Below, piece after piece: positions 18,313 through 24,300 of a stretch of 64,000 nt of DNA. Each line of letters begins with the position of its first letter. The stretch's first letter is position 1. Where the stretch lies: NCBI RefSeq assembly GCF_013167455.1, contig NZ_CP038328.1; one strand, given 5' to 3'. The DNA comes from Escherichia coli O157:H7. Its GTDB lineage: Bacteria; Pseudomonadota; Gammaproteobacteria; Enterobacterales; Enterobacteriaceae. The position numbers are program-made.

Positions 18313-21300
18313 CTGGCAGAAACCACGTCCGGTAGTTACGCCGCCCCAGTGCAACTACCCGGAGGGCGTTTTCACACAGGTTATTGTCGATCTCCACCCA
18401 GCCATTGCGGCAGTATTCGTTCAGAGCGTCCCATTGCTTCAGCAGATAGGTGAACGCTTTCGCTGTATCCGAGTGGCGCGACAGCGTGTTCATCTGCCCC
18501 TGGAGCCACTCATACAACGACTGCATTAGCGGTACCGTTCTGGCTTTTCTGACCGCCAGTCGCTCTTCTGCCGGACTGCCGCGGATCTCAGCCTCGATAG
18601 CGTACAGTTCCCCGATACGACGGAGCGCTTCTCCCGTTACTGTCGTTGGATGGCGGACATGTACATCGTGGATCTTGCGTCGGGCATGTGCCATACAAGC
18701 CGCTTCGGTTGCCTGACCGCTTTCGTAAAGAGCATTGTAACCCGCATATGCATCGGCCTGCAGGATACCTCTGTAGTCCGCCAGATGTTGCTGTGGGTGG
18801 ATGCCTTTGCGGTCGGGAGAGTATGAGAACCACACCGCTGCCGGCATGGTCGAACCGGCGTTGCGATCGTCACGAACATAGACCCACAGCCGTCCGGTAC
18901 GGGTTTTACCCTGACCCGGCTCCAGTACATTTACCGGCGTGTCATCGGCATGCACTTTACCCGGCATCAGCACATAGTGCTTCAGTTCATCATACAGCGG
19001 GCGAAGCTGCTCTCCCATGATGTCAACCCAGCGCCCCATCGTATTGCGGTGCAGCTCCACGCCCTGGCGGGCATAGATTTCCGACTGACGGTACAGCGGC
19101 AGATGCTCGGCGAACTTAGCCATGATTATGCGGGCCAGCAGAGCCGGACTGGCGTAACTGCGCTCGATGGGTTTTGGTGGCTGCGGAGCCTGAACTATAC
19201 AGTCGCACCGGCTGCAGGCCCGTTTTGGGCGAACCGTTTCGATTACCCTGAACGCGGTGTTGATGATATCCAGTTGTTCAGAGATGCTTTCTCCCAGCGG
19301 TTTCAGTTTACCGCTGCAGACGGGGCATTCGGTTTCTGCCGGGGAGATAACCTGCCTGTCACGGGGAAGTGTTGCCGGAAGTGCTTTGCGGACGGGAGAG
19401 TCTGATGTTTTCGGCGCTGTCTCTCCGGCCATTGAGGTGAGTTGCAACTGCGCCTCACCAAGCCTGTTCTGGAGCTCGGTTATACGCGTTTCTGCCCGTG
19501 CGATCTTCTTTTCTATCTTCTCGCGGCTTTTCTCGCTGCTGCGACCGAACAACATTCTCTGCAGTTTAGCGACCAGCGCTCTGAGTGAGCTGATCTCGCG
19601 GGCATAGCCGGTTATTTCACCAGACAGACGGACGATAACAGCCTGCTGTGCGATCAGCAGGGCCTTCAGTTGCTCGATGTTGTCGGGGAGTGTGTTGTTC
19701 ATTCCCCTGTTTTATCACGGGTTATATCCGGATGCCAGGCCGTTCTGTCCGTTTGGGATGTTGCCATGCGATCCCCTCCAGTAGCATGGATAACTGAGCT
19801 GGCGTCAGGTGCACTTTCCCTTCCCGGGTTACCGGCCAGACGAAGCGGCCCCGTTCCAGGCGTTTGGCGAACAGGCATAACCCGTCACGATCGGCCCACA
19901 GTATTTTCACCATTTTGCCACTGCGGCCCCGGAAGACGAAGATATGCCCGGAGAACGGGGCATCTTTCAGCGTGTTCTGCACCTTCGAAGCCAGGCCGTT
20001 GAAGCCACAACGCATATCTGTGATGCCAGCGATGATCCAGATTCTGGTACCGGTTGGCAGCGTTATCATCGGGTACCTCCTTTCATTTCGCGGATTAGCG
20101 CCCGTAACATTTCCGGAGTGAGAGGGTCAAACAGTTTTACCACACCTGATTTAAGATGCAGCTCGCACCGTGGGACGTTTCCGGGATCACTCTCAGGGCA
20201 CTCATCAGGCTTGTTACGCCAGAAGGGATTTGTAACTGGTCTGGTCGGCTCTGGCGTATCAGTCAGAGCCACCGGGACAGGCATGCATTCCTGTATGTCA
20301 TCATCGCTCAGTAAGCCGTCCTCGTACTGGCTTTTCCATTTTAACAGCAGGTTATCATTGATACCGTGCTCTCTGGCGATCCGGGCAACAACAGCACCGG
20401 GCTGTAATGCCTGTTTTACCAGCCTGATTTTAAATTCACGACTGTAGGAGGTTCGTCGTTCTTTTCGCCATGTGCCTTCGCTGATTTGAGGCTCTGTTAA
20501 TTCCTTCTTTCTGTTGGCATAAAGGATGGCGTCAAGCTGAGCTAATGAAACTGAATCGGGCAATGGCCATGCGATACCGGATGCAATAAATCGCTGAAAA
20601 AGCGTATGTATTGTGGAATGACTGAGACCTAGACGCTGAGCGATGGCCCGGATGGTCAGTTTATCTTCAAATCTTAAACGCAGAGCATCAGGCAAATAAG
20701 AACGGAAGCAGGGAATATCTTTTTTTGTCTGGGAATTCATCGTTCGTGTCCATCTATATAGATGGGCGCGATTGTTGCCAGACAGGACAATTTTCACAAG
20801 ACGTCGCAGATGGGGCGCTTACACAACAATGGCGCGAGGGAAAGCTGCTATTACCTTCTTCAGAGAGCCCCCAGCTACTTCCTGTGACTCTCGATGCAGC
20901 TGCCGAACAGCCAGAATCGCTCGCAGAGGACCCGGAAACCCTCAGTATCAGCTGTTGTCAACGACGGATGACTATTGCACCGTTCGTGACAGTGTGCTGC
21001 AAGCGGATGCGTACGCCGGGTTCAACGAGCTGTATCGCAATGGTGGGATAACGGAAGCTGCCTGCTGGGCTCATGCCCGCCGAAAGATCCACGATGTGCA
21101 CGTCCGCATCCCGTCAGCACTGACGGAAGAAGCCCTGGAGCAGATCGGTCAGTTGTACGCCATAGAGGCGGATATAAGGGGAATGCCGGCAGAGCAGCGG
21201 CTTGCTGAACGTCAGCGAAAAACGAAACCGTTGTTGAAATCCCTGGAAAGCTGGTTGCGTGAAAAGATGAAGACCCTGTCGCGACACTTAGAGTTGGCGA

Positions 21301-24300
21301 AGGCGTTCGCGTACGCACTTAACCAGTGGCCGGCACTGACGTACTATGCGAACGATGGCTGGGTGGAAATCGACAACAACATCGCTGAAAATGCCCTGCG
21401 GGCGGTCAGTCTGGGTCGTAAAAACTTCCTGTTCTTCGGCTCTGACCATGGTGGTGAGCGGGGAGCGCTACTGTACAGCCTGATCGGGATGTGCAAACTG
21501 AATGACGTGGATCCAGAAAGCTACCTTCGCCATGTGCTTGGCGTCATAGCAGACTGGCCGGTCAACCGGGTCAGCGAACTGCTTCCGTGGCGCATAGCAC
21601 TGCCAGCTGAATAACACATCCCCGTCAATACGGCCCTCGCTGTACGCTTACGAAGCTAATACCGTTTTGTCTGTTTTTTTAACAAAGAAAATAATCCTGG
21701 AGTAGGTTCCCGGGCATTTGCCCGGGATGATTACTGTTTTAATGGATTATTAATCTTTGCATATTCAAATGGACTGATAAATCTTTCTCTGTTTGCATCC
21801 AGAAAATCGGCCCACCACTGTAGCATCAGTCGCCGTTCTTCCAGATGTTCTGCTTTATGAATGTAAGCAGCACGTACACCGTTACGTTCCTGATGGCTCA
21901 TCTGACGTTCAACTGCATCGCGGGACCACAAACCTGATTCTATTAACGCACTACATGCCATCGCCCGGAATCCATGACCACAGACATCCTGGGTTGTGTC
22001 ATACCCCATAACCCTCAGGGCTTTATTTACGGTGTTTTCACTGATTGGTTTACGTGGGTCATGTGCTCCCGTAAAGATCAGACCATTTTCACCAGCCCAT
22101 GTCTGAAGTTCTGCCAGTATGGCTACAACCTGTTTGCTGAGTGGCACAAGATGTGGTGTTCGCATCTTGGATCCCCGGTGTGAGAATTTTACGCCTGGCA
22201 GAGGTTCGCGTTCGGCTGGAATAGTCCACATGGCATTGTCAATATCAATTTCAGACCAGCGGGCGTATCTGAGTTCACTGGAACGAATAAAAACCAGTAA
22301 ATTCAGCATAACGGCAAGCTGGGTGACAGGTTGCCCCTTGTAACTGCCAATACGCGACAAAAGTTCAGGCAGGCGAGAAAGATCAAGAGCGGGGCGATGC
22401 TGGCGTTTTACCGTAGTCAATGCGCCAGCCATATCCAGAGCAGGATTATATCTGATGATGCCAGACTGTACGGCATAACGCATTACGGCAGATATTCTTT
22501 GCTGCAGACGACTGGCGATTTCATAAATTTGTTTAGCTTCTGCAGCACGAACAGGGATAAGCAGGTCCGGGGTATTGAGTGTTGTGATATCCCGATTGCC
22601 GATAAAGGGGAATACGTGTGTCTCGAGGCTTTTGAGTACTTTATCGCTGTGTGATTGTGCCCATTGTTTATTACTGGCATGCCAGCGTCGTGCAATATGT
22701 TCGAAAGAGAGTTGTAAATCAGGGACTACTTTTTTAGCTCTTTTCTGTTCGCAAGGGTCAACCCCCTCCGAAATCAGTTTTCGGGCCTCATCCCGTTTTG
22801 TACGAGCTTCGGAGAGAGATACTTCTGGATACACAACAAGTGCCAGAGTCTTCTCTTTACCCAGAATACGATAACGGAGACGCCAGTAACGGGAACCATT
22901 AGGATGTACCAGCAGGAACATGCCAGCCCCGTCAGTGAGTTTATAAGCCTTGTCAGTGGGCTTTGCAGCCCGGATTTTTGCGTCAGTCAGTGCCATAGTT
23001 CAGCCTTCTGAATGCGTTAAAGAGGGTACAAATTCTGTCGAACTGGGGTATGCCCGCAATTATACCCACACAATGAGGTTGATGTGGGGAGAATTTGGTT
23101 GAGTTCGGTAGAATTGATTTGGAGGAAGAACACTTAAATCATGGTGTTCTGAAACGAAAAACGGACCTCCGTGGAGGTCCGTTGATATGAATTTGGTGCC
23201 CGGACTCGGAATCGAACCAAGGACACGGGGATTTTCAATCCCCTGCTCTACCGACTGAGCTATCCGGGCAACGGGGCGCATTAAACCTGATTCGCCTCGT
23301 CTCGTCAATCAAATTTCTTCAATTTACTGCAGACTGCACAATCTATCATCACTTTGCCGCTATTGCACACATTGTCAGGCAAACCAGGCGGTCCAGGCGG
23401 CGGAAAGCGGCATTGCCAGAAGGAGTGCTGGAAGCATGTTGACCACCGGGAACATTTTAATGCCACAGATGCGTAATCCGGTTGCCAGCAGCAATAAACC
23501 GCCTACGGCGCTGAAGTCTGCCATCATCGACGGTGTGGTCAGCGGTAATATCAGCGCGGCAGCCCACGCCAGCGTTAACTGGATGATCAGTAATGGGATA
23601 CTAATCACCGATACCGCAATACCCAGCGAGCAGGCGAAGATCATCGCCGTAAAGAAATCAAGAAATGACTTGGCGATTAAAATACTCGGATCGCCGGTCA
23701 TCCCTTCGTTCATCGCCCCGAAGATCCCGGTGCCGCTGGCGCAAAACAGGACAATAATCGCGACATAATTCTGAATAAAAGATTCATGCGCTGGCTTCTT
23801 ACGTGAGTGACGAAACAGATTTTGTGCTTTGGCGACCGCTGTATTGACGCCTTTCTCCAGCAGACAAATTTCGCCGATTAATGCTCCGAGTAAGGTTGCT
23901 AAAACCATCGCCGGAAGGTTGGCGCATTTCACCACCAGTAAAATACCAATCCCCAGCGATGCCAAACCAAAAATTGATGTCATGGAGACGCGGATACGTT
24001 CCGGTAAGCGTTGGCTAAGCAGTGCACCGAGCATGCCACCCAGTAATATTGCACTTGCGTTGATAAAAGGGCCGATGACCACAAGAGTTCCTGTTAACTG
24101 TATTGTTTGATTTTCTTATTATGAACTTTTTGCCTTGTTGATGGCTTGTCTGGTCGCAAAGTCCTGGCTTGCACGCCTTAGCGAAAGGTGCCATGATTGC
24201 GCGAATTTTCTCCTCTCTGTACGGAGTTTGCCCGATGCACGCCATCTCCTTACATTCTCTCGCTTATCGCCGTTTCGCGCGAAACCCTTCTCTTTTTATG

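Follow-up and report, generated by a model that had tools for sequence, protein, structure and literature searches.

Positions 20823-21651 of a 64-kb stretch of Escherichia coli O157:H7 DNA (64,000 nucleotides of contig NZ_CP038328.1, hereafter the window) are occupied by a decayed copy of ISEc8, an insertion sequence (IS) of the IS66 family, in which a 36-bp linker lies between an internal tnpA piece and the tnpC 3' end. This linker evidently consists of the two fused tips of another element, IS100, which belongs to the IS21 family. With a probability that we put at roughly 85%, the locus is a nested IS graveyard, in which an ISEc8 insertion would have been followed by the insertion of IS100, by deletions, by the decay of IS100 to a short scar and by the arrival of a different IS66-family element (copy 3). 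The locus itself is ordinary IS decay that appears to be functionless debris, and the IS100 scar is a small, apparently undescribed detail within it.

Composition of the ISEc8 remnant

Positions in ISEc8 are numbered from its left tip, and the 2,442-bp reference combines L002, an ISEc8 whose ends are both complete, with copy 2, a second ISEc8 copy in the window. The parts of the remnant and the in-window reference are as follows.

20823..20955, plus strand: internal tnpA piece of 133 bp, ISEc8 nt 251-383, encoding TnpA residues 54-97 of 126
20956..20991, no strand assigned: 36-bp linker with no ISEc8 counterpart
20992..21651, plus strand: ISEc8 nt 1783-2442, beginning with the final 2 nt of tnpC codon 306 and continuing through codons 307-512 and the stop codon (21612-21614) to the right inverted repeat (about 21630-21651)
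2478..4586, minus strand: copy 2, ISEc8 nt 334-2442, recognized by its identity to ISEc8, with tnpA cut at 4586

The tnpA piece, whose translation in the native frame matches TnpA, agrees at 133/133 positions with the tnpA of intact ISEc8 elements from many E. coli genomes, and the segment 20992-21654 aligns with copy 2 (3137-2475) at 99.5% identity (about 660/663). Matches of this quality exclude chance and bear out an earlier note on this DNA, which had described a tnpA fragment joined to the tnpC 3' end through short foreign sequence. Alignment against L002 and against copy 2, the latter as the note had proposed, places the breakpoints at ISEc8 nt 251, 383 and 1783; the origin of the linker, in turn, came from a search of E. 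coli genomes. Some details of the earlier description need amendment. The roughly 130 bp that were said to match the tnpA 3' region of copy 2 do exist, as the 133-bp tnpA piece, but they come from the middle of tnpA and not from its 3' end, and only the last 50 bp match copy 2 (20906-20955 = 4586-4537, 100% identity) because an IS3-family element interrupts the tnpA of copy 2 at 4586. Similarly, the tnpC 3' end is present, but with 206 complete codons instead of about 209. The IS3-family element in question (orfA 4641-4967, orfB 4964-5854; 4587-5854 and beyond) is inserted in the copy 2 tnpA at ISEc8 nt 334, which explains why copy 2 is left without most of tnpA and without the left inverted repeat.

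Two segments of ISEc8 are missing from the remnant, namely nt 1-250, including the left inverted repeat, and nt 384-1782 (1,399 bp), which hold the end of tnpA, the entire tnpB gene and tnpC codons 1-305. Hence the gene set is incomplete, with no tnpB, with tnpA reduced to the part encoding residues 54-97 and with tnpC reduced to its last 206 codons. With respect to the ISEc8 termini (GTAAGCG... tips, which a complete element has at both ends, along with an 8-bp target duplication), the left one is gone and the right inverted repeat is kept, ending at 21651 as an intact repeat, in agreement with the earlier note. The same note had the remnant starting directly after the left end of copy 3 with no terminal repeat of its own, and this is indeed the arrangement: the tip of copy 3 ends at 20822 and ISEc8 sequence begins at 20823. 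By nucleotide identity the remnant is ISEc8, yet it is not an active member of this group, tnpB being absent, tnpA and tnpC truncated and the DDE domain partial. The NCBI Prokaryotic Genome Annotation Pipeline (PGAP), which assigns the name ISEc8 to the copies used for comparison, marks only a tnpC pseudogene here, an ISEc8 transposase described as 'incomplete; missing N-terminus', and leaves both the tnpA piece and the IS100 scar unannotated.

A long open reading frame (ORF) runs through the junctions.

20772..21614, plus strand: chimeric ORF of 280 codons with a TTG start, a mechanical read-through

It is made up of 17 codons from the left end of copy 3, 44 tnpA codons, 12 codons from the IS100 scar and, last, the C-terminal part of tnpC; frame arithmetic places the tnpA piece off its native frame and tnpC in frame. 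In Pfam, the translated ORF matches positions 128-283 of the 284 of the IS66 DDE domain profile, as well as the C-terminal element, and lacks the leucine-zipper and zinc-finger domains that are present in the full-length TnpC of copy 2. The judgement of the earlier note that this ORF is not a real gene holds, given that PGAP shows only a pseudogene at this position, that the DDE domain is partial and that the N-terminal domains have been lost.

A separate observation concerns the reference ISEc8 in strain Ecol_517 (L002 4816-4820, compared with window 21280-21427), which has a 148-bp deletion of its own within tnpC. The alignments overlap by 5 bp at the borders of this deletion, and the annotated tnpC gene there is 1,386 nt long. 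The deletion represents a further small one of the microhomology type in an IS.

Origin of the linker

The linker sequence of about 35 bp quoted in the earlier note is exact and measures 36 bp at 20956-20991, and it matches neither of the two genes, to which the note had been unable to match it. Searches of the whole 64-kb window with k-mers and with fuzzy matching at up to 9 substitutions, which covered ISEc8 nt 334-2442 in copy 2, recovered nothing beyond one chance 10-mer. These searches bear directly on a rival idea, in which the linker would be native to a divergent ISEc8 or other IS66-family copy and would have been introduced by recombination between diverged elements; the earlier note had named ordinary tnpC of this kind as the result that would refute its reading, and no such result was obtained. 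The window does hold suitable partners, in the form of three IS66-family elements with 65-73% mutual identity, but no linker k-mer of 11 nt or longer occurs elsewhere in it, both flanks of the linker are 99.5-100% ISEc8, and the linker itself corresponds exactly to IS100 tips (see below), so that an origin in a divergent copy is scarcely conceivable.

When 5,426 complete E. coli genomes were searched with sensitive settings, linker positions 11-36 were matched at 25/26 positions by the majority of some 4,300 records from many unrelated contexts; the same search gave 73 weaker matches that cover at least 80% of the linker at 90-95% identity, and repetition of the search at a looser E-value added nothing. 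In the three contexts that were opened, the match falls on the outer end of an IS21-family element of 1,954 bp, just upstream of istA, and the matched elements are named IS100 or IS100kyp (istA/istB) by PGAP. The opposite end of the same IS100 element begins TGTCAACGACGGATGAAAAG. The linker can be decomposed accordingly.

20956..20971, no strand assigned: IS100 right-end (istB-side) tip, nt 1-16, TGTCAACGACGGATGA, an exact match to the full-length 1,954-bp IS100 in two of the sequences compared (L005, L006)
20972..20991, no strand assigned: IS100 left-end (istA-side) tip, outer 20 bp, reverse complement CTATTGCACCGTTCGTGACA, likewise exact

Since the 16+20 bp match is exact and fills all 36 bp with no base left over, and since both termini point outward, the linker is evidently an IS100 (1,954 bp) minus its central 1,918 bp. 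The deleted part includes istA, istB and the internal GTGATCCAC-type repeats. The ends of IS100 are 28-bp imperfect inverted repeats (21/28 identical), whose single strands can pair as an imperfect stem of about 28 bp, and the junction in the window, whose position carries an ambiguity of 1 nt, falls within an imperfect direct repeat (GGATGA in one of the inverted repeats, GGATCA in its counterpart). The single mismatch in linker positions 11-36 is the G/C difference inside this junction repeat. The scar in the window has no 5-bp target duplication, its flanks being GCTGT and GTGTG.

IS100 scars at other sites

Scars of 36 or 47 bp that join two IS100 tips are present at about six further unrelated sites and show three distinct internal junctions, designated here by the number of base pairs retained on each side.

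16+20 junction, 36 bp: ISEc8 remnant in the tRNA-Phe island (window), no duplication
16+20 junction with one tip substitution, 36 bp: tellurite-resistance (ter) island in 10 genomes, duplication CTTTA
16+20 junction, 36 bp: transposase gene, 10 or more complete genomes including several from human clinical samples, duplication CATTC
22+14 junction, 36 bp: IncF plasmid, duplication CTCCC
22+14 junction, 36 bp: two metagenome contexts (L016, L024), duplication imperfect or none
28+19 junction, 47 bp: metagenome contigs, duplication GACAG

Perfect 5-bp target duplications thus accompany four of the other scars (CTTTA, CATTC, CTCCC and GACAG), and duplications of this length are a signature of IS21-family integration (PMC10122671). 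The ter site is empty in pMRGN207 and in strain GF60, with a single CTTTA in pMRGN207. At the CATTC site, in silico removal of the scar together with one copy of the duplication yields a continuous DDE-transposase reading frame. The 16+20 and 22+14 types represent crossovers at different points within one alignment register between GGATGAAAAGTGATCC and GGATCACTATTGCACC, and this shared register accounts for their identical length. The junction microhomologies are GGATGA/GGATCA (1 nt perfect), TG (2 nt) and CACT (4 nt), all located 14-28 bp from the tips, and the 36-bp junction unit is present in at most two copies per genome. In contigs representing one genome per species, there was no match to the junction 24-mer or to the gapped two-tip pattern; the gapped pattern also had no match in viral contigs. 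A BLAST search of E. coli genomes with the 22+14 junction found no match either, although the low-complexity filter may have masked its A-run.

The existence of several scar sites, of target duplications and of three junction types suggests a recurrent internal deletion of IS100, of the nearly-precise-excision type, that acts in place, as opposed to a mobile mini-element. The latter possibility would make the 36-bp unit a non-autonomous element resembling miniature inverted-repeat transposable elements (MITEs), mobilized in trans by the IS100 transposase and inserted as a unit. Such mobility would explain why an identical 36-bp junction is found at three unrelated sites, two of which have perfect 5-bp duplications and one a clean empty site, and why full-length IS100 is lacking at every scar site tested; the mere 1 nt of perfect microhomology at the 16+20 junction fits it as well. 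Nevertheless, we regard a mobile unit as very improbable. In vitro, IstA requires two complete direct repeats per end, which are 23 bp apart in the IS21-family element studied (PMC10122671), whereas the scar retains only 14-22 bp per end. Moreover, 36 bp are too short for the ends to be looped together or for a circular or tandem junction intermediate to form, no genome has more than two copies, and the copy in the window has no target duplication. Furthermore, the two other junction types imply that independent internal deletions do occur.

The same scars weigh on another explanation of the linker, in which no IS100 ever inserted into this ISEc8 and the 36 bp are filler DNA, copied from an IS100 elsewhere during the double-strand break repair that deleted ISEc8 nt 384-1782. 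Filler DNA would not require the 5-bp duplication that is lacking at the scar in the window, and repair that uses microhomology, along with polymerase activities (the IS excision enhancer, IEE), exists in enterohaemorrhagic E. coli (EHEC). However, the 36 bp start and end exactly at the terminal nucleotides of IS100 (TGTCA...TGACA) with the tips outward, a precision at both termini that is not expected of random capture. Elsewhere such units are flanked by 5-bp duplications, the mark of insertion by a transposase. There is hence a very slim chance that this account is correct. Both divergent tnpC and random filler DNA were rejected as sources of the linker.

Some further observations were made on IS100-like sequences. 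Two metagenome contigs (L019 8168-8200 and L021 6367-6399) carry a 33-bp sequence, TGTCAACGACGG-CTCTACCGA-CCGTTCGTGGCA, in which both 12-bp tips are of the IS100 type and the 9-bp centre is unrelated to IS100; there is no target duplication around it. In another contig (L022 3021-4281), a 1,261-bp insertion, probably another IS, lies beside the right-inverted-repeat (IRR)-side tip of the 47-bp scar, relative to the otherwise identical L018 and L023. Full-length IS100 is found at many positions within IS66-family elements (tnpA, tnpB, tnpC and the tnpC 3' end) in unrelated E. coli genomes and plasmids (L004, L005, L015, H232-H266); this may reflect a target preference or a mere clustering of IS elements.

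Island context and spread of the remnant

The remnant belongs to a pathogenicity island that occupies tRNA-Phe and sits at its integrase end, between the following two features.

18302..20822 (start approximate), minus strand: copy 3, a different IS66-family element with tnpA-tnpB-tnpC, based on ORFs, PGAP annotation and NCBIfam matches to the IS66 transposase and TnpA
21731..22996, minus strand: island integrase gene, adjoining tRNA-Phe, based on ORFs, the PGAP annotation of the O157:H7 locus and NCBIfam/profile matches

Copy 3 is only 65-73% identical to ISEc8 at the DNA level. Its left tip is intact at 20822 (reverse complement GTAAGCGCCCCATC...); its right end is missing, and its tnpC passes into a NERD-domain pseudogene that is itself truncated. 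The start of the window is an IS66-family cluster too: beside copy 2 lies a third IS66-family element, copy 1 (296-2320, minus strand; tnpC ORF 326-1729, tnpB ORF 1942-2292), which is about 65% identical to ISEc8.

The segment 20760-21700 of the window is 100% identical to several E. coli O157:H7 genomes, where the order is an IS66-family element, the remnant, a tyrosine-recombinase gene beside tRNA-Phe, and then yqgA and speC. A 5.2-kb block (18000-23200) is shared, with no gaps and at 99.6% identity, with the enteropathogenic E. coli (EPEC) strain O127:H6 E2348/69 and with O111:NM. In O157:H7 and O127:H6 (L001, L003), the island end consisting of the integrase gene, the ISEc8 remnant and copy 3 is found at a tRNA-Phe beside yqgA/speC, whereas in O111:NM (L007) the same island end is located at a different tRNA-Phe, beside dicD/dsbD/cutA; therefore the same island has integrated at two tRNA-Phe genes. 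The junction of copy 3, tnpA piece and linker is covered to at least 80% in 436 of the 5,426 complete E. coli genomes. Given that the block is common to EPEC, O111:NM and two tRNA-Phe loci, and the junction to these 436 genomes, the remnant must have arisen once, before the spread of the island, and has been inherited together with it. An assembly artefact is ruled out, the junction being found in hundreds of complete genomes.

The window also contains repeats outside this locus, which were detected by self-comparison. One is a short dispersed and tandem repeat family with units of about 65-120 bp at 75-97% identity, some of them inverted (31876-31940, 35106-35314, 39664-39762 and 51751-51938), and the other is a separate pair of 66-bp repeats (9707-9772 and 11990-12055, 83% identity).

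Proposed history of the locus and formation of the scars

From the composition and breakpoints described above, we infer the following order of events and the deletion mechanisms behind it. At first, a 2,442-bp ISEc8 would have inserted next to the integrase gene in the tRNA-Phe island, and a 1,954-bp IS100 would then have inserted into this ISEc8. Subsequently, ISEc8 nt 384-1782 could have been lost, either through an adjacent deletion mediated by IS100 or because two IS100 copies within this ISEc8 recombined. The 1,399-bp deletion ends exactly at an IS100 tip, inasmuch as the scar is flanked by ISEc8 nt 383 and nt 1783, and a double hit by IS100 is plausible given its occurrence at many positions inside IS66-family elements. 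IS100 itself would next have lost its central 1,918 bp at the imperfect repeat GGATGA/GGATCA, leaving the 36-bp two-tip scar. Finally, copy 3 would have landed at ISEc8 nt 250/251, and a later deletion would have taken the right end of copy 3 together with ISEc8 nt 1-250; a single deletion across the right end of copy 3, ISEc8 nt 1-250 and part of the NERD-domain gene would account for both losses.

For the scars in general, we propose that a full IS100 inserts with a 5-bp duplication and that its interior is later lost between short repeats in its own inverted repeats. The preferred route would be slippage of strands, or a template switch, between IS100 ends that are synapsed or form a hairpin, perhaps coupled to transposition-associated replication. 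Template switching is favoured by the position of the junctions, 14-28 bp from the tips, that is, in the region that pairs in the hairpin or is held by the transposase in the synapse. It is conceivable, although we consider it rather unlikely, that IS100, and perhaps the IS21 family more broadly, possesses a specific, recurrent self-erasing pathway in which a template switch at transposase-synapsed ends leaves a stereotyped scar of 36 or 47 bp.

Several observations weigh against the nested history and the in-place deletion of IS100 that it includes. In the genomes examined, full-length IS100 occupies neither of the two ISEc8 positions (nt 383 and 1783) nor any of the three other scar sites tested (the ter, CATTC and CTCCC plasmid sites), so that the step from full IS100 to scar has nowhere been caught. 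Around nt 1783, the sole ISEc8/IS100 junctions found sit 32 bp upstream, in the O104:H4/55989 lineage; as for nt 383, IS100 was found only at other positions in tnpA, tnpB and tnpC. The scar in the window, flanked by GCTGT and GTGTG, lacks the 5-bp duplication, and an extra deletion event must consequently be assumed. Furthermore, its junction uses 1 nt of perfect microhomology, and the 4-nt GGAT available in the same register has not been seen in use. Lastly, this type of junction recurs at three unrelated sites, which simple slippage does not obviously predict.

At the level of annotation, these findings mean that the chimeric ORF should not be counted as a gene and that a seemingly unrelated linker has a simple origin. 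IS100 scars of 36 and 47 bp, which are currently unannotated, account for odd junctions and for small insertions with 5-bp duplications. The composite remnant is also useful as a marker for tracing the common descent of this end of the island, being identical at two tRNA-Phe loci and in EPEC and EHEC lineages. Should the scars come from a defined excision pathway, microhomology-mediated IS loss would be extended to the IS21 family. If, moreover, the self-erasing pathway were to prove true, the scars would constitute an undescribed class of IS footprint that records past occupancy by IS100 where the element is now gone.

Comparison with known systems

Searches of the accessible literature found no description of a scar, MITE or precise excision for IS100 or IS21, and the closest parallels come from other elements. 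In the nearly precise excision of Tn10, the interior of the transposon is reportedly deleted between short direct repeats inside the terminal inverted repeats, so that a small two-ended remnant and the target duplication stay behind. The IS100 scars are alike in that the junction lies in short repeats within the inverted repeats, that the tips and, at four other sites, the duplication are kept, and that the events are recurrent and stereotyped. Tn10, however, is a composite transposon with inverted IS10 copies of 1.3 kb, whereas IS100 is a single IS21-family IS with 28-bp imperfect inverted repeats; the repeats used by IS100 are only 1-4 nt when perfect, or 5/6 and about 10/16 when imperfect, and its remnants of 36 or 47 bp are known here from sequence alone. 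The Tn10 process (Ross, Swan and Kleckner 1979; Foster et al. 1981) is cited in a review preprint (10.1101/2023.06.07.543989).

Among established cases, ISApl1 is lost from Tn6330 (mcr-1) by way of microhomology, and IEE enhances the excision of IS629, IS1 and IS30 in EHEC (10.1101/2023.06.07.543989). The loss of ISApl1 and IS629 resembles the formation of the IS100 scar in involving an IS with a circular intermediate, a deletion of about the length of the IS itself, 2-4 bp microhomologies near or inside its ends, and EHEC/EPEC hosts. In contrast to the IS100 scar, in which both tips are kept, deletions of the ISApl1/IS629 type usually remove the whole IS or one of its ends.

The remnant as a whole resembles the routinely annotated truncated ISEc8 pseudogenes of EHEC and EPEC islands in its truncated tnpC and its intact right inverted repeat; yet the PGAP entry 'IS66-like element ISEc8 family transposase, incomplete' covers the tnpC part only, without the tnpA piece or the scar. 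MITEs, which typically measure 50-500 bp or more, share with the scar the two inverted IS tips, the lack of coding capacity and the target duplications at some copies. The scar nevertheless differs from them in being far shorter, in lacking the second transposase-binding repeat, in the absence of amplification and in the presence of several junction variants.

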